From the IMG/VR virus record IMGVR_UViG_3300047157_000188, positions 1-59,504 of that record: a stretch of DNA of 59,504 nucleotides. One strand, written 5' to 3'. Positions 10,173-23,224 of the stretch are shown here, one piece after another (the stretch's first letter is position 1; the number at the start of each line of letters is the position of its first letter). The notes under the pieces are model-generated. The model saw nothing but the letters and a program-made list of their open reading frames with translations, was not told where the DNA came from and ran no database searches. This DNA comes from a virus. Its lineage: Duplodnaviria > Caudoviricetes. The translations under genes and the position numbers were made by a program.

Positions 10173-10362
10173 ATTTTTGTAAATATTCCTGTATGGTATT
10201 CTTGAGTATGAGCAAATCCATTTTACTCATCGGATGCAAACTGTCAATATATCCCCAACTAATTTCTCCTGTTTCTGTAGTATACGGTCTATAAATTTGT
10301 ACCGATTTTACTTCTGGGTCTATCTCTCCATCGACCACTTTAAATTTTATTGACTGTTCCAT
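10159..10362 (-). CDS. Hypothetical protein
   Basis: 67-aa ORF overlapping the ASCH start. Confidence 0.6.
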   Translation of the reverse strand: MEQSIKFKVVDGEIDPEVKSVQIYRPYTTETGEISWGYIDSLHPMSKMDLLILKNTIQEYLQKYDWN

Positions 10363-10397
10363 AATTAATAACCTTATTAGTTTTTAGATTATTAATC

Positions 10398-10404
10398 ATA
10401 CACC
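10398..10404 (-). promoter_or_regulatory. GGTGTAT motif upstream of the 10362-to-5611 gene run
   Basis: Reads TATCGGTGTATGATT on the minus strand; intergenic. Confidence 0.4.
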
Positions 10405-10418
10405 GATATAATATATTA

Positions 10419-10616
10419 TTATTCCAATAAATCGTCATCAATCATAATGTCATCTTGCATCAACAAATCGCCAAATGCCTCAGTATTAATTTCCTTTTTA
10501 GTATGAACAATAGTAGGTCTTGCTGTATCTGGATCAAATAATATAGAACAAATTATACAAATACTACCCAACAAGAATAACAAAACAAAGATAACCGCCG
10601 CAATATTGCCTAACAT
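10419..10616 (-). CDS. Small membrane protein
   Basis: N-terminal hydrophobic helix and acidic tail. Confidence 0.6.
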   Translation of the reverse strand: MLGNIAAVIFVLLFLLGSICIICSILFDPDTARPTIVHTKKEINTEAFGDLLMQDDIMIDDDLLE

Positions 10617-10645
10617 ATCTTAATTTCCATTTCATTTGTGGGTAA

Positions 10646-10831
10646 TTAACCCTTGATTATATTTTCATTTGCGAGTTTGGTGGGAATTTTACCCAATAAT
10701 GCTCTATCAATGATGTGTAGATTCTGTGCTTCTTTATGTTTTATTTGTGTCAAATTACCCTTGAGTTGAGCCTGTAACACCTTGCGTATAAGGTTTATTT
10801 CGCTTACAGTGAGAAGTACGGTTTTATACAT
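10646..10831 (-). CDS. Hypothetical protein
   Basis: 61-aa ORF with GGGG RBS, downstream of a promoter. Confidence 0.6.
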   Translation of the reverse strand: MYKTVLLTVSEINLIRKVLQAQLKGNLTQIKHKEAQNLHIIDRALLGKIPTKLANENIIKG

Positions 10832-10875
10832 TTTTCCCCTAAAATATTAACTTTTCTACTCTTATCAACCATACC

Positions 10876-10935
10876 AGTATATACCATAGCAACACGCCTG
10901 TCAATAGTATCGACTATAGCAGATATGATCCTTTA
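10876..10935 (-). promoter_or_regulatory. Tandem sigma28-type + sigma70 promoter
   Basis: TAAA-N17-GTCGATAC followed by TTGACA-N17-TATACT. Confidence 0.7.
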
Positions 10936-11044
10936 ATAATTCCCTTCTTATACTCTATTTTTACCTCCGTTCCTTACAATAAGTAAAAAATTTAGATTTA
11001 TGCAGAGAAATAGGTAAAAATTATGGAAAAAACAAATAAAATAG

Positions 11045-11073
11045 TTGTAAAGTTGGATTGTTAGTGTTATAAT
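11045..11073 (+). promoter_or_regulatory. Sigma70 promoter with extended -10
   Basis: TTGTAA-N17-TATAAT with TGn; ATG lies 4 nt downstream, so the transcript may be leaderless. Confidence 0.6.
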
Positions 11074-11077
11074 ATGT

Positions 11078-11536
11078 ATGAGAAAAGAGACAATAAGGGC
11101 AATAGTTGATATAATTGTTGCAGAAAATAAAAATATAATAGTATTAGAAGAAGAATACTGGGATGAAACTATAGATACTAAGTGGCATGTTGCTAGGTAT
11201 GAGAATAGGCATAATGAACTTGTTTATAAAATTATAGATAATAAGATATTTATTGATAGTAAGCCACTTAAAATACATGATTATATTATTGATATTAATG
11301 GTATATTAAGAATTGCTGATGGACACCCTTTAGGTTCCGAATTTCCTTATTGTGTCAATGGTGCAGGAAGATTGATAGTAGATAAATTAGGTATAATAAA
11401 ATATATTGATAATTGGTCTGGTCATTATAAACCCACCGAACAAGAATTTAATAATAGTTTAAAATTTTTAAATAATTTAACTATAGAACGAAAGTATATA
11501 TGGGATCATTCTTTATTTCCTATCTTCCCTGTATAA
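11078..11536 (+). CDS. SGHYKP-motif protein, putative ADP-ribosyltransferase-like toxin domain
   Basis: YIIDINGILRI..GHP...GAGRLIVDKLGIIKYIDNWSGHYKPT; the only plus-strand gene in this block. Confidence 0.55.
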   Translation: MRKETIRAIVDIIVAENKNIIVLEEEYWDETIDTKWHVARYENRHNELVYKIIDNKIFIDSKPLKIHDYIIDINGILRIADGHPLGSEFPYCVNGAGRLIVDKLGIIKYIDNWSGHYKPTEQEFNNSLKFLNNLTIERKYIWDHSLFPIFPV

Positions 11537-11707
11537 ATTAGGTACTGGTTGATCTATTATAGGTAATAAACTAATAACCATAACTACCTCATCTAATTTC
11601 CTATTATCTTTAATATAATTATTAATTAATTTCTCTATCTTTTGGCACACAGATTCACAAGCCAAAGGTTCTTGAGTCTTAAATCCTATAGCTATTTTAT
11701 CTTCCAT
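11513..11707 (-). CDS. Hypothetical protein
   Basis: 64-aa ORF convergent with the 11078 gene. Confidence 0.55.
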   Translation of the reverse strand: MEDKIAIGFKTQEPLACESVCQKIEKLINNYIKDNRKLDEVVMVISLLPIIDQPVPNLYREDRK

Positions 11708-11713
11708 ATTTTT

Positions 11714-11816
11714 GACTGACTGTCACCATTTCGCACAACCCGATTATATTAGAAAATACAAAAATTGACTGACTGTAACTATTTTGCAACTATCTCTATA
11801 GATTAGGAAAAACAAA
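11714..11816 (-). repeat. Two tandem copies of the ~50-nt element (TTGT-n5-CTAAY-hairpin-...-ACAGTCAGYC)
   Basis: 11714-11762 and 11767-11816, both starting gactgactgt on the plus strand. Confidence 0.75.
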
Positions 11817-12332
11817 TTATGAGTTTGCTTCTAATAGTGCCTTCATAGATTCCATGAACTCATCGTCTGTCAACTCTGGTTCTGGGTCTGTACTACGCAC
11901 GACAGGATTATTGTGAGATGGTTTAGGAGATGCTGTTTTAGGTATATTACCAACAATAATATTACTATTTTTAGCTATATCTTTAATTGCTAAAATATCT
12001 ACATATTCTTTATCGAATTTAAAATCAAAGTATGCTCTAAGAAGATCAGGATTCTCACTACGTTCATAATAAGACCCATCACCTAACATCACCCAAAGAT
12101 CATATCCATGCTTTTTAGTTTCTTCCAGATCATTGCTAGGTTCGACTATTGAATACTTTAAAATCTGAGGGTCTGTAATATATTTAGACTTATGTTCTAG
12201 TTTAATCATAGGGCATCTTTCAATTAGTTCGCCCTGTTTAACATCAGTCTTTGCCATAACATGATACAGACCATCATGTTTAATAAGTTGTCGTCTTTTT
12301 CCTAATCCAGATAATACTACAAAATCCTTCAT
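11817..12332 (-). CDS. Degenerate SET-domain protein
   Basis: VMAKTDVKQGELIERCP, LGDGSYYERSENP and ILAIKDIAKNSNIIVG align by eye to SET motifs A.EDIKKGELIEECP, LGYGSLYNHSxxPN and A.RDIxxGEEITINY. Confidence 0.65.
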   Translation of the reverse strand: MKDFVVLSGLGKRRQLIKHDGLYHVMAKTDVKQGELIERCPMIKLEHKSKYITDPQILKYSIVEPSNDLEETKKHGYDLWVMLGDGSYYERSENPDLLRAYFDFKFDKEYVDILAIKDIAKNSNIIVGNIPKTASPKPSHNNPVVRSTDPEPELTDDEFMESMKALLEANS

Positions 12333-12385
12333 ATATTTTCCTTGTTCATTTTGTGAAAACTCAACCCTTGGTCATCACACTATAT

Positions 12386-12421
12386 AATAAAAAATCGCCA
12401 ACCTTTGGCAAGGTGACGATT
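12386..12421 (-). terminator. Probable intrinsic terminator
   Basis: Minus strand ATCGTCACCTT-GCCA-AAGGTTGGCGAT followed by TTTTTATT. Confidence 0.6.
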
Positions 12422-12445
12422 TAATATGTTTTAAATTATTAAAAA

Positions 12446-12715
12446 TTAAATAGTTAAACCACTAGGAGTAGAATCTACAATTTCCAATTTGTCTGACTTA
12501 GAATTTAATTTAGCAAAACAACTATAAGATATTTGATTACCCTCTAATTGGGTTTCTGCATCAACCATATATCTGGTATAAACATTTATTCTCCATCTAT
12601 TATCATAAACATTCATAGCCTTACACATTACTAAATTTTTAGGTTTACCAATCTCTTTAATCAAAAGACTACATACCGGGCCGTCCACTTCCGTAGACTT
12701 AGGATTTATTATCAT
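12446..12715 (-). CDS. Hypothetical protein
   Basis: Strong AGGAGGTG RBS; IGKPKNL..KAMNVYDNRWRINVY. Confidence 0.75.
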   Translation of the reverse strand: MIINPKSTEVDGPVCSLLIKEIGKPKNLVMCKAMNVYDNRWRINVYTRYMVDAETQLEGNQISYSCFAKLNSKSDKLEIVDSTPSGLTI

Positions 12716-13050
12716 ATTTCACCTCCTGTAAAAATAAATTTTAATTTAACCAAAATAAATAAGACCAATTCTAATCTTGACAAAACGTAGTTCAGGATTA
12801 ATAATTATGCAGGTCGGTTGGTAGTAATATATACTATTTCAATATTAATATACCCCTTTCTAGTCTAAACAGAATACAAGTAAAATGAGAATTAAAACCA
12901 GCATAGGCTTGACTCTTTCTATTTATTAATTATAATAAAGTGGCTAATGTCTCTAGACCTCAACCCATCTAGTTCCATTATACCATATATATCGACCTCC
13001 ACAATCTCAGGAGTATTCTAAAATTACATACTCATAGCAATTATAATTCT

Positions 13051-13098
13051 GGCTGACTATAGACAACTTTAGCAAACCTTATTGATTAGCTAGTACAA
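13051..13098 (-). repeat. ~50-nt element copy
   Basis: Minus strand TTGTACTAGCTAATC-AATAA-GGTTTGC...TATAGTCAGCC. Confidence 0.6.
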
Positions 13099-13196
13099 TT
13101 ATAATAATTATTAATATAATACTCTTTCTCTCCTGCATCACCGTATCACTATACCATTATATCGGACAGGTGCATCCATTACCATTAGAAAATATC

Positions 13197-13252
13197 TGTA
13201 AGTCCTTGTCAGTAAACAACTTAACTAATTTTCGCGGGCATCTTCTATGCCA
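13197..13252. repeat. 29-bp palindrome + 8 nt + GCGGGC box + sigma54-type box on minus strand
   Basis: TGTAAGTCCTT-GTCAGTA-AACAACTTAAC (13197-13225), GCGGGC (13234-13239), TGGCATAGAAGATGC on minus strand (13252-13238). Confidence 0.75.
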
Positions 13253-13253
13253 T

Positions 13254-13295
13254 AAAAGAAGGCAGGCCACTCCCCACCACAAGGAATGACCTGCC
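13254..13295 (-). terminator. Intrinsic terminator after the DUF932 gene
   Basis: GGCAGGTCATTCC-loop-GGAGTGGCCTGCC then TTCTTTT. Confidence 0.8.
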
Positions 13296-13321
13296 CGACG
13301 CACACCACGAAAGGAGAGCGA

Positions 13322-14269
13322 TTAGAGAGCGTTAGCGTACTCTGTAGCGAGTGCTAGTGCCCTGTTGTTAGCAGTACCGTTCTGACCGAACCACAGGCTT
13401 TCCATGCGGTTATTGGCGTTACGGCCTTTGTTATAATTTAGATACTCGTTGAAGCCATTGTAGGCTGCCCACCAAGTACCACGGACTCCCGGCATATCCT
13501 GCTTTGGCCCATGAATCGTAGAGAGAATATCATCGAGGACATTCTTAGTACGAGTCTTGAGGTCGTCGTCAGGAGTCTTGTCGATATTCAGCAGAACCTT
13601 GACGTATTTGCGAACGTCAGCCTGATTGAAGTCTCGACTAGCCAGAAAGCGGAACTGTTCCGCAGTTGCCTCGAACTGTGCATTGATATTGTCCATGATG
13701 TCACGAACATTATCAAGATTAGCTTGGGCACTCTTAGTATGTCGAATACGTAGTAGATTGCTTTCTTTGTGGGAATGAGCGAAAGCTAAGGTATTGACAC
13801 AAACAACACGGATTGGGGTGTAGCCCACACGAATAGCAGTTGTGCCATCGTGACTGTTGGAAAGCAGAATAAACTTCTGCACCTCGTCACCCTTGACAAT
13901 TTCGCTGGGGTCACGGTTTAATTGAGCAAGTGCCCAAACCTTCTGACCACCACTAAGCGAACCTCCCGTGTGGAGACTACACTCGCCAGCGTCTACGAAT
14001 GGCTGAAACCACTCGAAAGCATCTTTATTCTGAAGTGGTACGTATCTTGGGCCGACCACTCCTAGAATACTACCATCGCTTTTGCGATAGGTTGCTTTGG
14101 CAGGTACGTCATAACCATCTTTGGTTACGAGATCCTTGACGCCAACTTCCCAATCTAAACCAGATTTTTCGATGGCTTCGCTGATTGTTGGAGCATCTTC
14201 CAACTTCTCACCAAGACCATGCCAAGGTTTTGCTCCGGTGTAAAACATAGATTCAACATTAGCAGGCAT
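13322..14269 (-). CDS. DUF932 / DUF945 phage-plasmid protein (TIGR03299-like)
   Basis: MFYTGAKPWHGLG, LGVVGPRYVPLQN.DAF, GGSLSGGQKVW, LLSNSHDGT, TPIRVVCVNTL, GTWWAAYNG. Confidence 0.9.
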   Translation of the reverse strand: MPANVESMFYTGAKPWHGLGEKLEDAPTISEAIEKSGLDWEVGVKDLVTKDGYDVPAKATYRKSDGSILGVVGPRYVPLQNKDAFEWFQPFVDAGECSLHTGGSLSGGQKVWALAQLNRDPSEIVKGDEVQKFILLSNSHDGTTAIRVGYTPIRVVCVNTLAFAHSHKESNLLRIRHTKSAQANLDNVRDIMDNINAQFEATAEQFRFLASRDFNQADVRKYVKVLLNIDKTPDDDLKTRTKNVLDDILSTIHGPKQDMPGVRGTWWAAYNGFNEYLNYNKGRNANNRMESLWFGQNGTANNRALALATEYANAL

Positions 14270-14308
14270 TTTAGTTCCTTTCGTAAGAGTAATGTCCTGT
14301 ATGCTTTA

Positions 14309-14348
14309 AGTATATCATATATATCGTCGCTGTCAACGATAATCTTTA
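14309..14348 (-). promoter_or_regulatory. Interleaved sigma28-type + sigma70 promoter
   Basis: TAAAGATTATCG-TTGACA-GC-GACGATAT-ATATGA-TATACT. Confidence 0.75.
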
Positions 14349-14365
14349 GTAAAATTTTTAATATC

Positions 14366-14408
14366 CGTAAGTCGTTACCCAGCAAGGGTTTACGCAGATT
14401 TTGCCCGC
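14366..14408. repeat. 29-bp palindrome + 8 nt + GCCCGC box
   Basis: CGTAAGTCGTT-ACCCAGC-AAGGGTTTACG, then CAGATTTT, then GCCCGC. Confidence 0.75.
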
Positions 14409-14446
14409 TGGCTTTACCATAATTACCAAACCTTGCAGTTTAGGTA

Positions 14447-14935
14447 TTACAGATACGGTACGCCTAAGTCACGCTTACAGTATTCTGGCATAGTTCTGTA
14501 AGCACATTGATCTTTTATATAAGACCACACACCCATACATTTAGCTATAGGTATTTCTTCTTTAATATTTTTAATAATATGTTTTACTGTGCCACCAGAG
14601 CATACGAGATCGTCAATAATAATATACTGACGAGTACTAGCACCCTCAACCATAAAATCCGAATACCCATCTGTGTTTTTCCTTACCACAATGATATTCT
14701 TTTTTAATAATTCTGCTATCTGTGGAACCACCATTAATCCACTAGTTCCACAACAGGCGATAGCATCGTATGATCCGTCATACTTTTTTAAACCAGCATA
14801 AGTACTCATTACTACTTGATTACGATACTTATGGCTCAAAACCCTTGAAGTATGGCTACATCCCTGTATAACCTTACCATCTGGTGTTCTTCTGAACTCA
14901 TCTAGTTCTTGCTGTAATACGTTCATCTTGTCCAA
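14447..14935 (-). CDS. Type I phosphoribosyltransferase
   Basis: PRPP-binding motif YIIIDDLVCSGGTV; DAIACCGTSG; IIVVRK. Confidence 0.85.
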   Translation of the reverse strand: MDKMNVLQQELDEFRRTPDGKVIQGCSHTSRVLSHKYRNQVVMSTYAGLKKYDGSYDAIACCGTSGLMVVPQIAELLKKNIIVVRKNTDGYSDFMVEGASTRQYIIIDDLVCSGGTVKHIIKNIKEEIPIAKCMGVWSYIKDQCAYRTMPEYCKRDLGVPYL

Positions 14936-14968
14936 TCTCGGAACAATTCTAATCGAACACCCACATTC

Positions 14969-14997
14969 ATTCTACCGTTGTCCGGTTGGCCTGTCAA
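14969..14997 (-). promoter_or_regulatory. Sigma70 promoter
   Basis: TTGACA-N17-TAGAAT. Confidence 0.7.
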
Positions 14998-15056
14998 GTC
15001 TATTGTCTTATTACACGTAACAGTTGCTCTAGTAGTCACACATCCACTACAAAATA

Positions 15057-15224
15057 TTAAGAGTGCGACCAAACATAATCTATATACCATTCGACTACCT
15101 CCTTGAGAGTAATATCGTCATCCTCAAGAATTTTCTTTACCTTATCTGTTTCAGATTGATTCATTACGCTCATTCTGTGATTTAAATAATCTAATACTGT
15201 TGTGATCTTTTCTTTTTTATCCAT
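15057..15224 (-). CDS. Hypothetical protein (start MDKKE, just after the tRNA)
   Basis: Part of ORF 15057..15251; the upstream extension overlaps the tRNA. Confidence 0.55.
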   Translation of the reverse strand: MDKKEKITTVLDYLNHRMSVMNQSETDKVKKILEDDDITLKEVVEWYIDYVWSHS

Positions 15225-15226
15225 AA

Positions 15227-15298
15227 TAGCTCCGGCGAGAATCGAACTCACATTTGAGGTTTAGAAGACCACTGTTCTATCCGTTGAACTACGGAGCC
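15227..15298 (-). tRNA. tRNA-Arg, anticodon TCT (CCA not encoded)
   Basis: GGCTCCG TA GTTC AACGGATA GAAC A GTGGT CTTCTAA ACCTC AAAT GTGAG TTCGATT CTCGC CGGAGCT A; full cloverleaf with one T-T mismatch in the anticodon stem. Confidence 0.93.
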
Positions 15299-15358
15299 AA
15301 AGGCCAGAACCGCAGGTCTTGGTTATCCCCATTGACGCCTGCGGCTCTGACTTTTTGA

Positions 15359-15631
15359 CTACACTCCCTGTAGCAGAGCGTCAGCCTTAGCTGATTCGAC
15401 TACCAGAGTTGCCTTGTGAGCATCTCCTGCTTCCTTGACACCGATACCGAACTTACGGTTTCGTGCCACTTTCCACCCCTGTTCACAATACTCCTTGATA
15501 TCAGGCTTGCTGACAACACTAAGAGTTTCTTGTGGTAGACCATCGGTAAGTGCTTCCTTTATGATCTCTGTAACAACTTCTGTATCCAGATCAGATGCAG
15601 CAACACATACGTTAAAAGTAAAAGCCTTCAT
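15359..15631 (-). CDS. Hypothetical protein (start MKAFTF)
   Basis: GGAG RBS before ATG 15631, within ORF 15359..15673. Confidence 0.7.
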   Translation of the reverse strand: MKAFTFNVCVAASDLDTEVVTEIIKEALTDGLPQETLSVVSKPDIKEYCEQGWKVARNRKFGIGVKEAGDAHKATLVVESAKADALLQGV

Positions 15632-15672
15632 TATTATTCTCCAAAGTAAAAGTAAACCAAACGTGTAAACCA

Positions 15673-15713
15673 ATTATATTATATCTATCGTCATGCGTCA
15701 ACTATAAACTTTA
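15673..15713 (-). promoter_or_regulatory. Interleaved sigma28-type + sigma70 promoter
   Basis: TAAAGTTT-ATAG-TTGACG-CAT-GACGATAG-ATATAA-TATAAT. Confidence 0.75.
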
Positions 15714-15717
15714 CATT

Positions 15718-16230
15718 TTAATCCTCCAATTCTTGATAATATTCGTACATATCAAACTCATCGACTAATGCTTCTGGAAATTCTTTCCAATGACCCTCAT
15801 AATAATTATCCACACCATTATGCCATATTCCGGCAAAACTCATTCCTGGCTCAAAATAGGAGGCTTGTACGTCAAACCCTAAGACTACCAACCTCTCGTA
15901 GAAACCTAATGGTGGACTCCACGCACTATCGAACGTTACATTCAGTTCGTCGTCTACTCTAGTTGGCTCCAGACCATAGGCATCTTTGCAACCAATATCC
16001 CACTTTGTACCCCAGTTCCGTAAACGCCACAGATACCAGCTAGTGTTGACATTATCTTTATCGCTATAGGATCTGCCCTCGCCCATCAACTTTGTTGGAT
16101 CACCGGGATCTCTAGGAGTAGGATAGAAAGTTTCAATCGTCCAATCGTCACGATATGCTTTCTCGAACTTGTCCAGCATAGACTTATCATCGTGTGTAAT
16201 AGTCAACTTATTTATGCACCAGTTAGGCAT
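15718..16230 (-). CDS. DUF1281 / YubB ferredoxin-like-fold phage protein (start MPNWC)
   Basis: MPNWCxN, WYLWRLRNWGTKWD, FDSAWSPP, YFEPGMSFAG; GAGGAGGT RBS. Confidence 0.85.
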   Translation of the reverse strand: MPNWCINKLTITHDDKSMLDKFEKAYRDDWTIETFYPTPRDPGDPTKLMGEGRSYSDKDNVNTSWYLWRLRNWGTKWDIGCKDAYGLEPTRVDDELNVTFDSAWSPPLGFYERLVVLGFDVQASYFEPGMSFAGIWHNGVDNYYEGHWKEFPEALVDEFDMYEYYQELED

Positions 16231-16621
16231 GACAGACCTCCTCAAGTATGTGTACCCTGTTACCATCCGTGACCAGACTATCGAAGTCATAATCATCCCA
16301 ATCAAAATCACCGTCATCATCCTCACGCTTCCAACGTGGCTCGACTATAGGATTATACGATAATCTTTCTAAATTGTCAATAGGTATACTACCTTTCTCT
16401 AGTATATCAAAATTGTTACATTCTACCCAACCACAAACATCCTTCCTACCTGCTGCATGAACTTTCTTGGCAGCATTTTTCTTATTGATTAGTGTGCAGC
16501 CTCTCATCTCAATCTGATACTTTTGTGGATCGAGATACTTGACTGTACCATCCCATGCTCGAATCTGCCAGTGCATGTAGTGCTGACCACGTTGCAAGTG
16601 AAATCGTACTCTGTATTTCAT
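16223..16621 (-). CDS. Conserved phage hypothetical protein
   Basis: 132-aa ORF with AGGAG RBS; YRVRFHLQRGQHYMHWQI. Confidence 0.75.
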   Translation of the reverse strand: MKYRVRFHLQRGQHYMHWQIRAWDGTVKYLDPQKYQIEMRGCTLINKKNAAKKVHAAGRKDVCGWVECNNFDILEKGSIPIDNLERLSYNPIVEPRWKREDDDGDFDWDDYDFDSLVTDGNRVHILEEVCHA

Positions 16622-16639
16622 AACTATCTCCTTCTCCTT

Positions 16640-16676
16640 AGTATATCATATCGACATTATGATGTCAATACCTTTA
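16640..16676 (-). promoter_or_regulatory. Interleaved sigma28-type + sigma70 promoter
   Basis: TAAAGGTA-TTGACA-TCATAAT-GTCGATAT-GA-TATACT. Confidence 0.75.
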
Positions 16677-16974
16677 GCCAATCTTTCCATATTTGGACAT
16701 TCCAAGTAGATGGAAACGGAGCACCACGACTAGTATAAGCATTGTCAGGATATAGTTTATTCCTATCTTTATCTTCAAACCACCTAGCCTGCCTAATGGT
16801 AGTACCCATAAATTTAGACATATCTGACAACGTAATTTCTTCCACACCCATACTAGAAAAATGATCTAGCATCTCTATAATTTTTTGCTTCTTGTTGGGA
16901 CTGTTCACTCTCGTTTCTATAGTTTTGTAGGGTATTGGCATTACAGAACTATTGGTGTCATACTGAAAATACAT
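16657..16974 (-). CDS. Hypothetical protein (start MYFQYD)
   Basis: AAGGAG RBS before ATG 16974. Confidence 0.65.
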   Translation of the reverse strand: MYFQYDTNSSVMPIPYKTIETRVNSPNKKQKIIEMLDHFSSMGVEEITLSDMSKFMGTTIRQARWFEDKDRNKLYPDNAYTSRGAPFPSTWNVQIWKDWLKVLTS

Positions 16975-16992
16975 AATTGTCTCCTTTCCCCT

Positions 16993-17028
16993 AGTATACA
17001 TTATCGGCATACTATTGTCAATACTTTA
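16993..17028 (-). promoter_or_regulatory. Interleaved sigma28-type + sigma70 promoter
   Basis: TAAAGTA-TTGACA-ATAGTAT-GCCGATAA-TG-TATACT; perfect GCCGATAA. Confidence 0.8.
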
Positions 17029-17035
17029 ATATTTT

Positions 17036-17085
17036 GGCTGACTGTAACCATCCTAAACTAATCTTACTAGATTAGGTAGAACAAA
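17036..17085 (-). repeat. ~50-nt element copy
   Basis: TTTGTTCTAC-CTAATCT-AGTA-AGATTAG-TTTAGGATGGTTACAGTCAGCC. Confidence 0.75.
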
Positions 17086-17412
17086 CTGGCGTCTATACGA
17101 TGTTGGTCCAATCTTCCCCGGCCTAGCCGGAAGGTATAGAATCCTGCGTTGTTGGTCAATGCCTTCTCAGCGGATACTCTCCTCAGAGGTCACCAGTTGT
17201 TTGTATTGTAGGACTTAGGCGAAACCCGTTCTAGGGTAACACTTTCCCGTATAGCTATCAGGCTGCCTATGTGCTATACGCCTTATCCATCTTAATGTGC
17301 GGTCATGGACACTAGGGGTTCGCACCCTACAGACATTTCCGATTGCTATCGCCAGTACCTTGTCGAATCACAATCTCAGGTACGAATGTCTGGGTAACTA
17401 TTCCGTGCCATG
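17081..17412 (-). ncRNA. Unclassified multi-domain structured non-coding RNA (~330 nt)
   Basis: No credible ORF; its own dual promoter lies at 17420-17459. Nested helices: 17330-37/17385-92, 17355-60/17378-83, 17304-12/17405-12, T-arm-like 17313-29, 17248-55/17273-80, 17092-98/17134-40, 17084-89/17193-98. Confidence 0.75.
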
Positions 17413-17419
17413 TATCCTA

Positions 17420-17459
17420 AGTATATCATTATTATCGTCGTTGTCAACACTATTCTTTA
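17420..17459 (-). promoter_or_regulatory. Interleaved sigma28-type + sigma70 promoter driving the ncRNA
   Basis: TAAAGAAT-AGTG-TTGACA-AC-GACGATAA-TAATGA-TATACT. Confidence 0.75.
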
Positions 17460-17476
17460 AAAAATATAAAAAAAAA

Positions 17477-17519
17477 CGTAAGTCGTTACCAGTAAACAAC
17501 TTACGCCATACATGCGGGC
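17477..17519. repeat. 29-bp palindrome + 8 nt + GCGGGC box
   Basis: CGTAAGTCGTT-ACCAGTA-AACAACTTACG (10 of 11 arm pairs), then CCATACAT, then GCGGGC. Confidence 0.8.
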
Positions 17520-17530
17520 CCGGTTTCCTT

Positions 17531-17788
17531 TCATTCCTCAAAATCTTTATCACGAGATTCGTCCAGGATGTGATAGCATTCTTCTAGTATATCCTCCGTC
17601 TCCCACACGGTTGTCTTCTTATCTGCACTAATATAGTCCTTACAACCACGTTCGTCTACATATACATATTCGTCTATCAATTCGCTCCCTGTCATATAAT
17701 CTAAAAACATTTTTATAACTATTTCTTTTTTGTTTAGATCCGTATTAAATACTTTCCTAAAATTTCCTGATGCTATGTATACCTTCAT
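17531..17788 (-). CDS. Hypothetical protein
   Basis: 85-aa ORF with GGAGG RBS. Confidence 0.7.
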   Translation of the reverse strand: MKVYIASGNFRKVFNTDLNKKEIVIKMFLDYMTGSELIDEYVYVDERGCKDYISADKKTTVWETEDILEECYHILDESRDKDFEE

Positions 17789-18556
17789 GCTGTCTGCCTC
17801 CTTCTTGAGAATCTTTAGTGCTTCCGCTGCTTTGCTACCCTTTGGCTGTACTCCGTGAATCAGTAGAGCAAAATCCTGATTTGCTTTGGTTGGATCGCAG
17901 GCATGACTATCATCGTTGATCGACTTCCAGACCTAGATCGTCTGCTTCTTGTTGGCTGAAAACTACTTTAGCAGATCGTAGACCATGCTCTGCAATCAGA
18001 TGATCGTCACGACCACCGTATGATGCAGTCAAACAAGATTGGCAGGCACAAGGTCACGACTACGAACCCAATACGTCAGAGACTTAGTGTAAGCATAGAA
18101 TAAAACATCAGGGTTACGCTCTGCGACTTTGATCCATGCCATGAAATACTTGTGACTGAACATATCACCAGACACATGAATACGAATAATTCTGGCGTCC
18201 TTGGGTAATGCTGCACACAATCCGTCTGCCATAGCGTCACTTGTTTCCAGACTATGTATAGCGTCGTGATTACGCTTGCGACTTTTGTATGTATTGGTGA
18301 ACAATACTTCTTGACTAGCAGAGAAGCAACGGAATTTGGTATGAGGACCGTCCTTAATTCTGCGACTACCGTCTGCCTGCTCTTCGGCTTGAGACTTGCA
18401 GTTATGGGCGAAAGGACAGTCTACTCCCGATAACAGATCGAAAGAATAAACTTTGGCAGTAGACCGTCCTATCTTCTGACCCAACCACCGCTTGAGTACA
18501 GTTGTTGCGAGCTTGTAGAGTTTTTTGAGTTTGGTGTTTGCTGCTGAAAATTTCAT
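17785..18556 (-). CDS. Phage gp88-like protein (frameshifted near 18030 and 17920)
   Basis: FSAANTKL, CPFAHNC..C, IRIHVSGDM, LFYAYTKS, PANLV-LTASYGGRDD...HGVQPKGSKA. Confidence 0.75.
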
Positions 18557-18592
18557 TGTGGTTGTCTCCGGTGTGATGTTGCTTGTCCCCTC

Positions 18593-18632
18593 AGTATACA
18601 ATATTATCGTCCTTTGTCAACTATATTCTTGA
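18593..18632 (-). promoter_or_regulatory. Interleaved sigma28-type + sigma70 promoter
   Basis: TCAAGAAT-ATAG-TTGACA-AAG-GACGATAA-TATTG-TATACT. Confidence 0.7.
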
Positions 18633-18640
18633 GTTTTTTT

Positions 18641-18687
18641 GCTGACTGTTTTACATAAATTTAACCGAGTGGATAGGGTGAGACAAA
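18641..18687 (-). repeat. ~50-nt element copy
   Basis: TTTGTCTCACCCTATCC-ACTC-GGTTAAATTTATGTAAAACAGTCAGC. Confidence 0.6.
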
Positions 18688-18691
18688 TAGC

Positions 18692-18772
18692 TGTAACTCT
18701 ATAGCTGACAACAACTTACAGCTACTGTGCGGGCACGACCGAACCTAAGTCATTGCTAGGCAACAACTTAGG
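18692..18772. repeat. Two 29-bp palindromes flanking one GCGGGC box
   Basis: 18692-18720, 8 nt, GCGGGC (18729-18734), 9 nt, CCTAAGTCATT-GCTAGGC-AACAACTTAGG (18744-18772). Confidence 0.75.
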
Positions 18773-18801
18773 CCGGTTCACACACACCACGGAAGAATAC
18801 G

Positions 18802-19185
18802 TTATGCCACGATGCTACCGAATAGCGGCTTGCGGCAATTCTTGACACGCTCACAGTAAAACTGTCGAATCTCACCGTCATGAGTCTGACAAGTTACCAA
18901 GTGATTAGTTCGCTTGAAATCCTTGTCATCTCTACGGTATGTAGACCGTCGATTCATCTGTCGTAATTCAGAATCTGAAAACTTGTAAGGCTTATCTAAT
19001 ACCCTTGCAAGTACACGTTTACTATCACCATTCAATGGTTGCAGGTATTCAAAATTATAAACCTGTCCCGGCTGTGCTTCGCACAAACTAGCACGACTAC
19101 CACCATACACAGAATAAATACCAAACATTACCAAGGCCGTTGCACTAATAACAACGATACCAACTGAAATCATCAAATTATCCAT
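18802..19185 (-). CDS. Hypothetical membrane-anchored protein (start MDNLMI)
   Basis: AGGAG RBS and N-terminal TM helix; upstream sigma70 promoter at 19223-19251 (TTGACA-N17-TAGAAT). Confidence 0.7.
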   Translation of the reverse strand: MDNLMISVGIVVISATALVMFGIYSVYGGSRASLCEAQPGQVYNFEYLQPLNGDSKRVLARVLDKPYKFSDSELRQMNRRSTYRRDDKDFKRTNHLVTCQTHDGEIRQFYCERVKNCRKPLFGSIVA

Positions 19186-19247
19186 CTTTAAAACTCCTAG
19201 TGTGAAAAACCTAACTAAAACCATTCTACCATAGACTTGACACCTTG

Positions 19248-19550
19248 TCAAGCCTTAATCGTCATTCCATCCTCAAAAGCTGCAATCCCATTTACATACC
19301 ATTCCCAATTTTCTTGACGTACATAAAAAGGACTAAACTTATTGATTCTGTCTTTTGTTGTGGGCGTCTTGTGTCCACCATGTCTCAGCGTTACGCTGTC
19401 GTCATCGTGAATAGTCACAACATCCGTACTGTATAACATGAAAGCCACGCTGCCATCCGGCTTTATTCTTACGGTAGTATTGTTTGCTACCTTGCGTTGC
19501 ATTCTGTTATTCTTTCCTAAAACCAATTTTGTTGCTTCTGCGTGTGTCAT
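19248..19550 (-). CDS. Conserved phage hypothetical protein
   Basis: AGGAGG RBS; LRHGGHKTPTTKDRINKF motif. Confidence 0.75.
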   Translation of the reverse strand: MTHAEATKLVLGKNNRMQRKVANNTTVRIKPDGSVAFMLYSTDVVTIHDDDSVTLRHGGHKTPTTKDRINKFSPFYVRQENWEWYVNGIAAFEDGMTIKA

Positions 19551-19570
19551 ATTATTTCCTCCTAAGTGTT

Positions 19571-19606
19571 ATATCGACATTCTACCAGATAAACTTTAGC
19601 TGTCAA
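19571..19606 (-). promoter_or_regulatory. Interleaved sigma70 + sigma28-type promoter (sigma70 first)
   Basis: TTGACA-GC-TAAAGTTT-ATCTGG-TAGAAT-GTCGATAT. Confidence 0.75.
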
Positions 19607-19629
19607 CAGAAAAAAATAAAAAAAATTTT

Positions 19630-19685
19630 TGGCATGAGGCGTGCGGGCCTCGTCGCTGTAAACTCTTATACAGCAACGAGTTATT
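19630..19685. repeat. Sigma54-type box (+) + GCGGGC + 8 nt + 29-bp palindrome
   Basis: TGGCATGAGGCGTGC (GG-N10-GC), GCGGGC at 19643-48, TGTAAACTCTT-ATACAGC-AACGAGTTATT at 19657-85. Confidence 0.7.
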
Positions 19686-19691
19686 TAAATT

Positions 19692-20258
19692 TTAAAAAAA
19701 GCTGTCAATTAGCTGTCCAGAAAATACGTTGCGTGTGAATAGATACCACGCATCATACGCTTTGTCAAGTGGTGGTCGAAACTTTTTTACAAAAGGTAGA
19801 TTCCAAGTATCTCCGGTCGTATTGTAATATTTAAACATTCTATCATCACAGTATACATCTGCTGGAATTAACAACCACATAACATGGTTACCCATCTTTC
19901 CTGAATTTATACTTCTCTCTTCTGAAGCCCAAGGCACACCAACAGCTACCAAATCCACATCTTCCCTAATATTAGATGCCGGTTTTGCAATCGTTGCACT
20001 TGTAGCTCTCTCTGGATCGTTTTTGGTTGGGCGTATCTGTGGAGTAGCAACTGTTATCTGTACAGTTTTAAAAATTTTCTCTCCGTTCTCTCCGTTAAAC
20101 ATTACGATCCGATCAATTCCTTTGTCGTTGGTAGCTTCAAAAGAATGAAACCCTCTTCTTACACATTCTTCGTCAAAAGTAATTTCTGCTCTTTTACCTC
20201 CTTGTCCACCGTTCTTACTGTTAGCTACTGCCTTACGTCTTTCGATAGTGATTGCCAT
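19692..20258 (-). CDS. Putative PD-(D/E)XK nuclease-fold protein
   Basis: GKRAEITF...RRGF...GIDRIV...KTVQIT...EDVDLVAV resembles the G..AE / D / QxK nuclease pattern, but with Thr in place of Lys. Confidence 0.5.
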   Translation of the reverse strand: MAITIERRKAVANSKNGGQGGKRAEITFDEECVRRGFHSFEATNDKGIDRIVMFNGENGEKIFKTVQITVATPQIRPTKNDPERATSATIAKPASNIREDVDLVAVGVPWASEERSINSGKMGNHVMWLLIPADVYCDDRMFKYYNTTGDTWNLPFVKKFRPPLDKAYDAWYLFTRNVFSGQLIDSFF

Positions 20259-20296
20259 TGTTGTCTCCAAAAAAAGTGGTGTTTGATCTTTCTCTT

Positions 20297-20334
20297 ATAT
20301 CGACAATTTTAACCTCTGAACTTTAATAAGTCAA
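20297..20334 (-). promoter_or_regulatory. Interleaved sigma70 + sigma28-type promoter
   Basis: TTGACT-TAT-TAAAGTTC-AGAGGT-TAAAAT-T-GTCGATAT. Confidence 0.7.
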
Positions 20335-20364
20335 CTATAAAAAGAGCAATATAAGAATTTTTTT

Positions 20365-20420
20365 TGGCATACGATATGCGGGCCCCGTCGCTGTAAGTTG
20401 TTGTACAGCAACGGGTTACG
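20365..20420. repeat. Sigma54-type box (+) + GCGGGC + 8 nt + 29-bp palindrome
   Basis: TGGCATACGATATGC, GCGGGC at 20378-83, TGTAAGTTGTT-GTACAGC-AACGGGTTACG at 20392-420. Confidence 0.75.
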
Positions 20421-20452
20421 CTTATAAAAAGTTAGGTGGAGCTGCTGATCCT

Positions 20453-20647
20453 TCAGTCAGATGTAAACATATTGTAAGGATAATTCCAATGATAAACGCC
20501 ACTCCTAGAATTTTCATCGTTTCCTTTTGTTTTTCCGTCATCTTCATTCTCCGTGTAAAATACTGTTTGAGTTAATGACCACATCATAGCTACGCCAACT
20601 GTATATCCTATTACAATCGACATGAAATCTAATTCTATAATATTCAT
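20453..20647 (-). CDS. Small membrane protein
   Basis: TM segment; ATGA overlap with the upstream gene. Confidence 0.5.
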   Translation of the reverse strand: MNIIELDFMSIVIGYTVGVAMMWSLTQTVFYTENEDDGKTKGNDENSRSGVYHWNYPYNMFTSD

Positions 20648-20922
20648 TCTGCTGTATACTCCTCATAAGTAAAACTTTGAACGCCTCGACGATATTGCTC
20701 CTCTACAATACCTGAAATCGCTGCTATATTTTCTTGTCTGTTCTCTGCTGTGCTAAGATCAATCTTAGGTACTGCTACCATTATCGACAAATTGTCCTGC
20801 TCCTCTCCAGTATTTTCATCTACAATATTACTGCAATCGTAATATCTGAAATTTGGATCCATAGCTTTATTCATTTTCTTCCCTGTATCGTTGTAGTAAT
20901 TCTTTAGAACCTGATCGAACAA
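20644..20922 (-). CDS. Hypothetical protein (5' end probably frameshifted)
   Basis: 92-aa ORF. Confidence 0.55.
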   Translation of the reverse strand: MFDQVLKNYYNDTGKKMNKAMDPNFRYYDCSNIVDENTGEEQDNLSIMVAVPKIDLSTAENRQENIAAISGIVEEQYRRGVQSFTYEEYTAE

Positions 20923-21049
20923 TATTTTCCCAATCTGTTACATCATCTCCCCTCAACTTTGCTTTTGGAATCTCATTTCCTGCCCAACGAACCCACATCT
21001 GTATATCTTCAGTCGCAAATTCGTCAAAATAGTATGGCATGTCCATAGC

Positions 21050-21250
21050 TTAACCCCAATCTTCATAGTTTTCATATGTTTCGTTATAGCAATCCCATTC
21101 TGTCCCGTATCCGTACAGGTCGTCACATTCTTGCATAAGGTCAGGCTGTCCGTCATCATACTGGTCATCTTCCATCATGTCAACAATGTCAAGGCCGTCA
21201 ACGTCGTCAAGATCGGATCGGTAAATGTTTTCAGCAGGTGTCATAATCAT
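21050..21250 (-). CDS. Small highly acidic protein
   Basis: GGAG RBS; very D/E-rich 66 aa directly downstream of a dual promoter. Confidence 0.7.
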   Translation of the reverse strand: MIMTPAENIYRSDLDDVDGLDIVDMMEDDQYDDGQPDLMQECDDLYGYGTEWDCYNETYENYEDWG

Positions 21251-21278
21251 TCTCCAAGTGGTTAAGTGTTATATTCCA

Positions 21279-21318
21279 AGTATACAGTCATTATCGGCAT
21301 TGTCAAGCGAAATCTTTA
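21279..21318 (-). promoter_or_regulatory. Interleaved sigma28-type + sigma70 promoter
   Basis: TAAAGATT-TCGC-TTGACA-AT-GCCGATAA-TGACTG-TATACT. Confidence 0.8.
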
Positions 21319-21510
21319 TTCTTTTTCTAAGATTGTGTCCAAGTAAATTTCCTCCGGCGTAATAACATATCCGTACTCACAATTGGGGGTATACACTCCA
21401 AAATATACCTTACCATTATCATATCCTTCGAACCCTACCATGATACCAAATATAGTGTAGATTGTCAACATCATTTTTCTCCGTTGGTGATTGTTTCCCT
21501 TATATATATA

Positions 21511-21538
21511 TTATCGGTTCACTCCGGCCATAACCTTA
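21511..21538 (-). promoter_or_regulatory. Sigma28-type promoter
   Basis: TAAG-N16-ACCGATAA; no TTGACA partner. Confidence 0.5.
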
Positions 21539-21557
21539 ATAAAAATATTTTTTTACT

Positions 21558-21605
21558 GGCTGGCTGTTTCCATAATTACTAACCCGAAGGGTTAGGTAGT
21601 ACACA
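21558..21605 (-). repeat. ~50-nt element copy
   Basis: TGTGTACTAC-CTAACCC-TTC-GGGTTAG-TAATTATGGAAACAGCCAGCC. Confidence 0.7.
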
Positions 21606-21622
21606 TCCGTATACCCCCTCTT

Positions 21623-21665
21623 GCGGGCATCCCGGCCGTAAGTCGTTTACTGGTAAGGGTTTACA
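21623..21665. repeat. GCGGGC + 8 nt + 29-bp palindrome
   Basis: CGTAAGTCGTT-TACTGGT-AAGGGTTTACA at 21637-65. Confidence 0.75.
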
Positions 21666-21673
21666 CTCGAAAC

Positions 21674-21769
21674 ACCATTCTGGTAAACATATAAGCGAAT
21701 AACAACACGTACCCCATCGAAACGATAGGGCCGTATTGTCGAATGATTGGCTCCAGGTCAACTAATGGC
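21674..21769 (-). ncRNA. Rod-like structured RNA element in a 3' UTR
   Basis: Nested pairings 21674-79/21764-69, 21680-83/21753-56, 21702-09/21732-39 and 21711-19/21723-31; the mismatches read as G-U on the minus strand. Confidence 0.5.
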
Positions 21770-21775
21770 TGCATG

Positions 21776-22063
21776 CTATCCTCCGAATGGTGATTGTTCT
21801 ACAGTATTCTCATAGTGTGATCGTAAAGCCTCGAGCCTTTCACTACTCCCTGGCTTTCCTATAGGATTAATCATATTGTCTTTACTGCTCAGGTATCTAT
21901 CATCTACCTTAGTCTGTTCACTCTTTACAATCTTCCTCATAGCCTTTCTATTAAACTTATGAACCGTACCATCCTGCTCAACACCTTTCCATATCATTGT
22001 ACATTCATCCCAAGCCGCCGATAGGATAGGATATTTTCTCATTAGCTTTTCTGTATTACTCAT
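21776..22063 (-). CDS. Hypothetical protein
   Basis: 95-aa ORF with GAGG RBS. Confidence 0.7.
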   Translation of the reverse strand: MSNTEKLMRKYPILSAAWDECTMIWKGVEQDGTVHKFNRKAMRKIVKSEQTKVDDRYLSSKDNMINPIGKPGSSERLEALRSHYENTVEQSPFGG

Positions 22064-22197
22064 TTTTCAAGTTCCTCATGTAAAGTATATTTCCTGCTAC
22101 TCTCATTCCATCCTTATCATCTAATTCCCAACTGTTAACATAATATAGTTGTACCAAACGAGTTGTTAGCTTGTCAAGCGTAACATATAGGTTCTCT

Positions 22198-22575
22198 TCA
22201 ATTAGTTCGTTCATTGTAGCAATAGTCTCCTGTGTTGTAGTTTCTTATCTCTTGTAGTTTAGCAGCTACTTCGTGAAAGTCAAGCCATCCAAGAACATCT
22301 ACACAACCGAGAGCCTCATTGATCGGCGTGTCATAGATGATCTCGCTTGTTTGCTCAGGGTCCGTTCCGTGTTCATACTTCAGAATCGCCAATTCAAAAT
22401 AACCATGCTGACCACCATAAGTCCCATCATGCAAAGCGATACTTGCCCCAAGTCCGTTGCTGAAATAGTAGCGTTTAACATATCGACCTTGCTCCCTGTG
22501 TGCTTGTGTGTTGAATCGTGTACTGTTTAGTTTCAGTGGATTTACTTTGCAAGTTTTCAATTTACTACTCCTCAA
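22198..22575 (-). CDS. Conserved phage hypothetical protein
   Basis: FSNGLGASI...YGGQHGYFELAIL...YDTPI...DVLGWL motif. Confidence 0.7.
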   Translation of the reverse strand: MRSSKLKTCKVNPLKLNSTRFNTQAHREQGRYVKRYYFSNGLGASIALHDGTYGGQHGYFELAILKYEHGTDPEQTSEIIYDTPINEALGCVDVLGWLDFHEVAAKLQEIRNYNTGDYCYNERTN

Positions 22576-22747
22576 TATGTGAAAGTCTGAAAGGGATTAG
22601 AACGTGATGCTGTACGAGTTGACGGGCTTCTGATTCTGTCATAGCTCCGACTTCTCCGATCTTGTTGCCGTCCAGGTCATACACGACCCAAACATTTTTT
22701 CTGACTTTTGGCATGATGCAATTGTTGTAACTCATTTCCGTTTCTCC

Positions 22748-23188: not shown

Positions 23189-23224
23189 GATTTTCTCGTG
23201 GTGGTGGTGGTGGTGAATGATCAG

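Follow-up and report, generated by a model that had tools for sequence, protein, structure and literature searches.

A family of ~58-nt intergenic elements with an embedded start codon in the early regions of related phages

What is the role of a short sequence that recurs, always in the same orientation, between the early genes of a phage? This question was raised by IMG/VR virus record IMGVR_UViG_3300047157_000188 (Duplodnaviria; Caudoviricetes), whose 59,504 nucleotides (nt) form the window analysed here (59.5 kb; G+C 36%; completeness estimate 40%). From ~9 kb to 27 kb its minus strand carries small early genes with many near-consensus TTGACA/TATACT promoters, and a sequence-only reading of this region had reported six copies of an unrecognised element of ~50 nt, with a variable hairpin and a conserved ACAGTCAGYC tail. 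We found that these copies belong to a clade-wide family that is larger than the six copies first reported, and that the element has two unusual features, an embedded start codon and an internal direct repeat. The element is probably a control signal on early messenger RNA, and several readings of its mechanism remain, which are weighed below together with the evidence that bears on each of them.

The tail motif was recovered on the minus strand at all six places (11714, 11767, 13051, 17036, 18640 and 21558), and the flanks agree with the consensus proposed earlier, TTGT-N5-CTAAY-loop-...-ATGG-NN-ACAGTCAGYC. When up to one mismatch was allowed, ACAGTCAGYC gave 11 matches, compared with 4.56 ± 1.83 in 100 shuffles, none of which reached 11. 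A covariance model (model R1) built from 26 copies (alignment A2) produced seven matches in the window at E <= 2e-4, all seven on the minus strand, in agreement with the single orientation claimed before; the next best match had E = 0.46. The first two copies stand in tandem. Copy 11714 (11708..11765, tail 11714-11723; 57.6 bits, E 1.3e-11) lies 6 nt upstream of the ATG of a gene for a protein of 64 amino acids (aa), hereafter gene S, and copy 11767 (11766..11819, tail 11767-11776; 36.1 bits), which has ATA at the start-codon position described below, begins 1 nt past the stop of open reading frame (ORF) 11817-12332. Copy 13051 (13045..13102, tail ATAGTCAGCC at 13051-13060; 55.3 bits) has TTG at the start-codon position and is orthologous to the copy that follows a DUF932 gene in 9/9 related loci. 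Two further copies are 17036 (17030..17088, tail 17036-17045; 56.8 bits) and 21558 (21552..21608, tail ACAGCCAGCC at 21558-21567; 49.6 bits), the latter having the best-paired stem of the window, CTAACCC/GGGTTAG. Copy 18640 (18634..18690, tail 18640-18649; 39.4 bits) is degenerate, with a weak stem and an ATG that is immediately followed by TAA. The seventh copy, also degenerate and additional to the earlier six, is located at 14400..14456 (tail AAAGCCAGCG; 28.3 bits, E 1.9e-4) and overlaps the stop of ORF 14447-14935.

The element is not confined to the window. An exact pattern scan of IMG/VR returned 31 loci; upon inspection, 17 of them contain the whole element, including blocks absent from the search pattern (GGATTYG and xTG), and the other 14 are chance matches. 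Contigs encoding a related terminase numbered 303. Five whole records of 128-233 kb, with terminases 74-77% identical to that of the window, have 5-8 model matches each, on a single strand, clustered in a stretch of ~12-16 kb and confined to the tRNA-rich early region. Four of 18 further long contigs carry 7-8 copies and 14 carry none or one. Because five of the latter also lack the early-region DUF932 gene, and because the single copies lie within ~3 kb of a contig end, we read these contigs as cut in the early region and not as element-free relatives. Twenty shorter related contigs gave only seven matches, and most of these contigs end before the early region. Copy number across the group is about 5-9 per genome. 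Unless stated otherwise, the counts given below are based on alignment A3, which contains 69 copies, drawn from the window and from the early regions of nine relatives (219 kb); the 69 model matches all share the strand of the tRNAs and ORFs around them. As orthologous copies from ten related genomes enter these counts, p-values derived from them overstate the number of independent events. Rfam 15, run on the whole window at the gathering threshold and on 11000-22500 at E <= 5, reported only tRNA-Arg at 15227-15298, which is the only tRNA in the window and lies among the minus-strand early genes. Nor was the element recognised in the literature on nick sites, promoter-early stem-loop (PeSL) cassettes and N4 promoters, which was consulted without a search aimed at the motif itself. 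The family, the one-strand placement and the lack of an Rfam match support the view expressed in the sequence-only reading that this is a real, orientation-dependent and unrecognised cis-element.

Two observations concern partial forms. In related contigs L004 (~6000), L015 (10101-10173), L008 (~190), L016 (~4041) and L027 a variant retains the 3' box TATAGTCAGCC only, which is located behind a different, GC-rich hairpin, GGCCGCTAGGCC, and ahead of ...GTGACCCAAAGTTATACT. In addition, ATAGTCAG boxes are present 7-20 nt downstream of some full copies.

The aligned copies define an element of ~58 nt, in which conserved blocks are arranged at nearly fixed spacing and beyond which, on both sides, conservation ceases. 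The order of the blocks is (T/A)TGTC, N4, CCTAAT(CC), a loop of 3-4 nt, GGATT(T/C)GG, ~5 nt, xTG followed by 3 nt, A(C/T)AGTCAG(C/T)(C/G) and A(R)AAT. According to the earlier reading, the central stem changes sequence while staying paired, which was taken as a sign of selection at the RNA level. The three stems quoted then are present as written, and copies 11714 and 18640 indeed pair weakly, but the larger alignments do not support a co-varying stem. RNAalifold predicted no consensus pairs for the 26 copies of A2, and on the same alignment the hand-drawn hairpin with an outer TTGT/ACAG helix paired no better than shuffles. In A3 77.9% of the cells pair, compared with 75.9% in shuffles (5/500 shuffles reach this value), a statistic that is limited by the fact that A3 was itself fitted to the structure; compensatory changes were restricted to two inner pairs, and one stem position is a conserved T-T or T-C mismatch in 66/69 copies. 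Minimum free energy folding of the 69 copies was equal to that of shuffles (mean z -0.11; 18/69 below -1), and extension of the stem to columns 13/39 showed no Watson-Crick covariation. Since G-U pairs (28) are not in excess of A-C pairs (22), nothing marks the sense strand as the folded strand. The loops of 3-4 nt are variable (TAC, TTC, AAC, GCCA and others), the stem sequence is conserved and AT-rich, and the 5' arm CTAA is better conserved than its pairing partner, columns 17/35 being unpaired in 24/69 copies. The dyad CTAATCC/GGATTYG is real but weak, and the three well-paired copies of the window are its best examples and do not represent the family.

Where columns of the alignment are most strongly coupled, they are so by identity and not by complementarity. 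The element contains a direct repeat with a period of 9 nt: the 5-6 nt after GGATT (repeat R1, T(T/C)G-Gxy) recur as repeat R2, xTG-Gxy. At the three variable positions of these repeats 140/207 cells match, compared with 72 ± 5.6 when R2 was permuted and with a maximum of 94 in 10,000 permutations. All three positions match in 24/69 copies where three would be expected, with ten different triplets, and also in eight of 25 further copies that are present in neither alignment. No complementary partner was found inside the element or on the gene strand nearby, where each early region contains 0-2 instances of antisense CTGACT[AG][AT], none of them in a conserved position. The repeat might be explained by slippage through which a required length is restored, or by a factor or tRNA able to read both of its units. 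Identity-type, non-complementary covariation of an internal repeat is unusual, and standard RNA-structure screens would miss such a signal.

The second unusual feature is the start codon. The xTG located six bases ahead of A[CT]AGTCAG is ATG, GTG or TTG in 64/69 copies (ATG 28, GTG 24, TTG 12, ATA 3, GTA 1, CTG 1). C is the first base of xTG in one of 65 copies, against a background of 17% (binomial 6e-5, for copies that are not independent). Of the 25 further copies, 19 have one of the codons ATG, GTG and TTG at this position and CTG is absent; the remaining six include several mis-registered or weak matches. The frame from the element start is open for at least five codons in 68/69 copies and encodes M-x-(T/I/V)-V-S-(Q/E/R). 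Its third codon positions (ACA, GTC) are invariant, and therefore conservation lies in the nucleic acid and not in the peptide. Three such mini-ORFs on the minus strand of the window start at an element ATG: 11697..11729 (ATG 11729-11727; MVTVSQKYGR), whose stop is 8 nt past the ATG of gene S; 17001..17051 (ATG 17051-17049; 16 codons), which runs into the next promoter; and 21553..21573 (ATG 21573-21571; six codons, METASQ).

This frame is connected to the following gene in part of the copies. The 19 gene-proximal copies examined for this include three in-frame fusions, three ATGA stop/start overlaps, one TAATG and one TAAnATG, and locus L033 provides one more ATGA overlap. Five of the 21 genes behind promoter-less copies have a frame that begins inside the element. 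Where a gene directly follows the copy, ATG is found in 13/21 and a canonical start in 21/21 cases, whereas those followed by a promoter have ATG in 7/33 and no start in three (Fisher p = 0.004, a value inflated by orthologues). Gene S (11513..11707, minus strand) is the clearest example. It encodes a 64-aa protein with C-x3-C that belongs to no Pfam family, and in all related loci examined an element copy immediately precedes its homologue (60-67 aa). In three loci (L148 of genome G008, L147 of G019, and L030) gene S has no start of its own, and the in-frame ATG of the element is the only candidate. One feature of an operator, a conserved site that includes a functional initiation codon, is thus seen in the 64/69 starts and in the sole start of gene S.

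The sequences upstream were classified for 70 copies. Ten copies begin 0-32 nt after a tRNA, and in six loci the element abuts the 3' end of tRNA-Glu or tRNA-Gly (0-3 nt). Another 12 begin within 15 nt of a stop codon, which is often located inside the 5' box, seven begin 16-60 nt after one, and the other 41 are preceded by more than 60 nt that contain no ORF of at least 50 aa; untranslated sequence thus precedes 51/70 copies (10 tRNA plus 41 long ORF-free). Downstream, 33/69 copies have a sigma-70-like promoter within 45 nt, with its -35 at 10-40 nt, 21/69 have a gene start at 3-38 nt without a promoter in between, and 15/69 have neither. In 10/10 genomes the DUF932 gene is followed by a long non-coding stretch that ends in the element. 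Read by eye, most of the nine aligned loci show the order terminator, other hairpins, promoter, a leader of ~60-100 nt and element, and in G005, G008 and G010 the next gene begins 18-33 nt past the element without a further promoter; the element is therefore transcribed as a 5' leader at these places. Near-perfect promoters are also present immediately upstream of the copies at L149:17645 and L146:19290, at a spacing that would start the transcript at about the 5' box. Because it lies in 5' leaders or between genes on the gene strand, and because it supplies the sole start of gene S, the element is very probably transcribed. Assembled contigs from four RNA-library runs over 11650-21640 span copies 13051 and 14400, though such contigs allow no conclusion on transcript ends or transcript level.

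These contexts bear on several earlier suggestions. The proposal of a non-canonical terminator, in the sense of a constitutive one, is disfavoured by the 21/69 copies that have a gene 3-38 nt on and no promoter between, and it is ruled out where the element is transcribed as a leader ahead of a gene. An intrinsic terminator was rejected as well: the stem is AT-rich, the tail is followed by ARAAT instead of a run of T, and the 11 terminator-like sites found in 9500-27500 all lie elsewhere than the copies. Nothing was found in favour of a protein-sponge RNA. Four copies had been placed just upstream of a promoter. This holds for copies 17036 and 18640, which are 14 and 19 nt away from strong TTGACA/TATACT promoters (11/12 matches) on the minus strand, one at 16993..17021 (TTGACA-17-TATACT), outside the conserved element, and the other at 18593..18620 (TTGACA-16-TATACT). 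The promoter after copy 13051 is a weaker TTGCTA...AATACT, read by eye and not among the listed promoter-scan matches, and the site after copy 21558 has a -10 only. Copy 14400 and the promoter downstream of it at 14336 are separated by 69 nt that include a hairpin. Only three of the 16 strong early promoters of the window (at least 11/12 matches) have a copy within 70 nt upstream, and hence early promoters do not in general include the element. We also noted, around copies 17036 and 21558, the arrangements TAAAGTAT-N12-GCCGATAA and TAAGGTTA-N12-ACCGATAA, which may resemble the flagellar sigma-28 consensus. Finally, one copy had been said to abut the 3' end of a non-coding RNA. Copy 17036 does follow an ORF-free stretch of ~330 nt (minus strand, 17090-17420) directly downstream of promoter 17447-17420, and one metatranscriptome contig covers 17186-17615, but this stretch is at most a candidate RNA gene: it has no Rfam match and no counterpart in the nine related early regions. 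The element is therefore not the 3' domain of a conserved RNA. A further stretch of ~330 nt without a long ORF, at 12716-13040 (minus strand), separates ORF 12446-12715 from copy 13051 and the weak promoter of that copy.

We tentatively regard the element as a transcribed leader cassette around a start codon that serves as a translational operator or ribosome-loading site; no other reading has a specific positive signal behind it. The cassette would be a separable unit of ~58 nt, placed in the leaders or intergenic parts of early transcripts and acting on RNA, with six conserved blocks surrounding a start codon that opens a short frame. Ribosomes initiating at the xTG would make the N-terminus of the next protein, or alternatively would stop at or beside the start codon of the next gene and then pass on. 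In this way the cassette would serve early genes without a ribosome-binding site of their own, often behind tRNAs or long leaders. Since conservation is at the nucleotide level, including invariant third codon positions, the blocks would most likely be the recognition site of a common factor that controls initiation, and the element a translational operator shared by early messages.

Several observations count against the leader cassette. In the 33/69 copies followed by a promoter within 45 nt, the next gene is equipped with a promoter and a ribosome-binding site of its own, and such copies have a mini-ORF (5-27 codons) that leads nowhere. A 4-nt Shine-Dalgarno core is present at -17 to -4 of 7/69 element starts, compared with 125/227 first ATGs of ORFs of at least 70 aa in the same regions. 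The element has no stable RNA fold relative to shuffles, and no candidate binding protein emerged; an AlphaFold model of the gene S product, a single helix with a pLDDT (predicted local distance difference test) of 72.6, was uninformative in this respect. According to our own rough estimate the number of ATGA overlaps is near chance, and the in-frame fusions could be secondary use of an ATG present by coincidence. The tRNA-Glu/tRNA-Lys locus, moreover, occurs in three states: with a promoter only (G002 and G004), with a promoter and a 54-aa ORF (G003), and with the element plus the same promoter and ORF (G001, G010, G017 and G019). The element together with ~20 trailing nt (~70 nt) thus forms an indel by itself, with TTG at both junctions, and because G003 has the same promoter and ORF without it, the element is dispensable there. 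Finally, the leader cassette does not account for the 9-nt direct repeat.

A more elaborate version, which we consider unlikely, gives that repeat a part in the mechanism. Here a portable translation cassette of 60-70 nt would load ribosomes without a Shine-Dalgarno sequence behind untranslated RNA, under the governance of a common factor, and the in-frame 9-nt duplicate of xTG and the second codon would, for instance, let the same initiator and second tRNA land at either of two equivalent sites, or would provide two units read by one protein. Gain and loss of the cassette by phages would rewire which early genes get translated.

Translational operators common to many early messages are known as targets of the T4 RegA protein, which are short, AU-rich and poorly conserved. 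Of the systems compared they are the closest to the element in logic: both are nucleotide-level sites that span the start codons of several early genes, and neither needs a stable fold. The element differs in having 58 nt, six blocks, a 9-nt direct repeat and a dyad; moreover, half of its copies lack a following gene, and no repressor gene was identified for it.

Conservation in fixed-spaced sequence blocks rather than in pairing, with a 5' CTAA arm that outlasts its partner, would also be expected of a site that acts as DNA. It could then be a promoter specific to the phage (of the middle class), or else an operator at which a phage regulator of the host RNA polymerase acts; we consider this possibility somewhat doubtful, but it is a serious rival. 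The CTAATCC-N3-GGATTYG dyad would bind a dimeric factor and A(C/T)AGTCAG would be the core recognition box. Such a site accounts for all contexts and for the block-wise conservation: the element is always upstream of and co-oriented with genes, it is found both ahead of and behind sigma-70-like promoters, in some cases in tandem, which is possible for promoters of different classes, and it is a separable module at the tRNA-Glu locus. The phage also appears to depend on the host polymerase, as suggested by the many TTGACA/TATACT promoters, a divergent sigma factor, and a search of five genomes in which no T7/N4-type polymerase domain was found, although this absence is not established because the control of that search was silent. 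In 17/70 copies there is a weak TTGnnn-N17/18-nARAAT in one register, and in seven more it is one base off. Taken as a weak internal sigma-70-like promoter (24/70 with the adjacent register), this arrangement was rejected because it cannot be reconciled with genes that begin 3-10 nt past the tail. Nor do the conserved blocks offer a fitting -10 of the sigma-70 type, as the would-be -11 A of nA(C/T)AGT is present in only ~49/69 copies, and a promoter in fixed register would start the transcript past the start codon in the ~10 copies that have a gene 3-10 nt after the tail. The distance of 10-40 nt to the following -35 shows no clean helical phasing, the low share of strong promoters with a nearby copy (3/16) counts against a DNA-level site, and the start-codon bias is left unexplained.

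The plus, or late, strand contains no copy and no GGRTT-N(15-19)-GTCAG, and the element is thus excluded as the site through which the phage sigma factor would act on late genes. A late-promoter role was rejected on this ground, and no shared motif was seen upstream of 15 late genes. The late strand, from 27.5 kb onwards, carries the genes for the divergent sigma factor, terminase, tail fibre and tape measure. The sigma-like protein (plus strand, 27465-28151; 228 aa) has a weak Sigma70_r2 match of 20.7-21.8 bits (cut-off 24); it is kept in 4/4 related genomes searched, in one of which the cut-off is exceeded, and its gene heads the late-strand genes behind sigma-70-like promoters at 27229-27372. 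An N4-type hairpin promoter was also rejected. Such promoters, which are used by the virion polymerase, have a GC-rich heptamer centred at -11 with inverted-repeat flanks (PMC4496689), whereas the stem of the element (CTAATCC/GGATT) is AT-rich.

Transcription of the element is likewise compatible with an RNA signal that works apart from translation, such as a cleavage site for an endoribonuclease of host or phage that would divide early polycistronic RNA, a 5' or 3' stabiliser, or a nut-like antitermination site that would let polymerase pass terminators; both processing and antitermination had been proposed in the sequence-only reading. We consider signals of this kind distinctly doubtful, but a processing site is a serious rival. 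Their placement would fit: the element is co-oriented and located between genes as well as in leaders, it abuts tRNA-Glu or tRNA-Gly in six loci and lies within 15 nt of a stop codon in 12/70 copies, and the presence of canonical terminators and of a second hairpin family in the same region makes control of read-through plausible. The linear boxes that flank its small hairpin may resemble the boxA/boxB layout. The lambda nut boxB consists of a 5-bp stem with a conserved purine-rich pentaloop, and HK022 put of two stem-loops, together ~70 nt, that are supported by covariation. Like these sites, the element is transcribed and orientation-dependent, occurs in leaders and after stop codons, and has linear boxes beside a small hairpin; unlike them it is present in 5-9 copies per genome instead of two, often directly ahead of a promoter. 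A lambda-type boxB was rejected, since the loops of the element are variable and comprise 3-4 nt and it is the stem that is conserved, and so was a put-like fold, given the absence of RNAalifold pairs over 26 copies and the mean z of -0.11 over 69. About half of the copies are directly followed by a promoter, where little would be gained from antitermination. The ribonuclease III (RNase III) sites of the T7 early region are long irregular hairpins at which early polycistronic RNA is cut into units. They resemble the element in being present in several copies on one strand, in the leader and between early genes, but the element has no double-stranded RNA long enough for RNase III and folds no better than shuffles. 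The RNA-library contigs run across copies 13051 and 14400, subject to the limit on transcript ends given above, and the bias in the start codon again remains without explanation.

The presence or absence of the element alone between tRNA-Glu and a conserved promoter and ORF raises the possibility of a spreading or recombining small repeat of little function, either a gene-cassette boundary similar to a PeSL or a strand-specific nick site. Upstream ORFs enter the element and downstream ORFs begin in it, and the 9-nt repeat together with the likeness of the 5' and 3' boxes suggests slippage or duplication. We nevertheless consider this quite improbable. Ends of blastn similarity among the nine early regions are not enriched at copies, with 67/1602 (4.2%) within 25 nt of a copy and 4.2% expected, a result that speaks against PeSL-like breakpoints. 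The element occupies orthologous places, such as that after the DUF932 gene in 10/10 genomes, and conservation of 58 nt of fixed-spaced blocks across phages with terminases 74-77% identical argues for selection.

In placement, the PeSL cassettes of T4-like phages are the closest described system. In these cassettes a terminator stem-loop, -35/-10 boxes and a Shine-Dalgarno sequence are conserved (PMC4122927). Like the element, they recur between the genes of plastic early regions in large lytic phages; both have a small stem-loop just upstream of a near-consensus sigma-70 early promoter, here in 33/69 copies, and reach the next start codon, and both are linked to at least one indel, here that of the tRNA-Glu/tRNA-Lys locus. 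In our element, by contrast, the promoter is outside the repeat, absent in 36/69 copies, at variable distance and sometimes upstream; the stem is weak and AT-rich, there is no Shine-Dalgarno sequence, the start codon is inside the repeat, and similarity ends are not enriched. For the nick sites of T5, phiKMV-like phages and tf, PMC3517423 gives consensus sequences of 7-20 nt (TACT/RTGMC; CGACxxxxxCCTA/CTCCGG). Those of tf and phiKMV-like phages are short and located on one strand only, and the same source describes features shared with the element: a conserved one-strand sequence in several to 14 copies per genome, uneven placement and a function that is unknown (PMC3517423). The element, with 58 nt, is longer than these sites of 7-20 nt.

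What is known of large uncultured marine phages comes almost entirely from their protein genes. The element provides a regulatory signal that is common to a clade and directly legible in the sequence, and it marks the early, host-takeover part of the genome. As a 58-nt site with a built-in start codon it lends itself to tests in reporters without the host. If it is indeed a shared operator or a cassette that loads ribosomes, it would reveal how these phages express early genes that are tightly packed and have no ribosome-binding sites, and would add a compact, portable expression signal to those available.

The phage itself is remote from deposited ones. Megablast of 11 kb of the window against deposited phages gave no match, and its terminase is at most 27% identical to that of any deposited phage, the top-ranked match being Bacillus phage Stills (26%). 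Half or more of the words sampled from the region were present in each of 16 sequencing runs from 14 studies, labelled mostly as seawater, marine or viral metagenome. Three adjoining genes on the minus strand (6090-9670) encode PSCyt1 plus PSCyt2 (DUF1549), PSD1 (DUF1553) and DUF1501 domains (E 1e-72 to 1e-115), families typical of Planctomycetes and Verrucomicrobia; these genes may be host-derived auxiliary genes and may hint at the host. A GP88-family gene (PF17338; minus strand, 17910-18601) is apparently split into ORFs 18029-18601 and 17910-18032. A contig from one run (X3) has one additional A at 18030, in this gene, and the split in the window may be a frameshift variant or an assembly error.

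The early regions of nine related genomes (L145-L153, from G001-G005, G008, G010, G017 and G019) carry 7-12 tRNA genes each, in the conserved order Arg, Thr-Gln-Asn-Ser..., Glu, Lys, Gly; according to ARAGORN the set includes a tRNA-Ser with anticodon ACT. The second repeat family mentioned above shares the intergenic regions of the element. It consists of hairpins CGTAAGT...ACTTACG or CCTAAG...CTTAGG, often beside a conserved GGCCCGC(A/G), and is present on the minus strand of the window at 13189-13227, 14364-14396, 17475-17507, 18684-18774, 19600-19683, 20335-20419 and 21636-21664. It is conserved across related genomes, being found downstream of the DUF932 gene in L145-L153 too; some members are followed by a run of T and are terminator-like, and others are not. 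The early promoters, finally, have a conserved CGATAAT in the spacer (TTGACA-N8-CGATAAT-N1-3-TATACT), examples on the minus strand being those at 17021-16993, 18620-18593, 17447-17420, 14336-14309 and 21306-21279.

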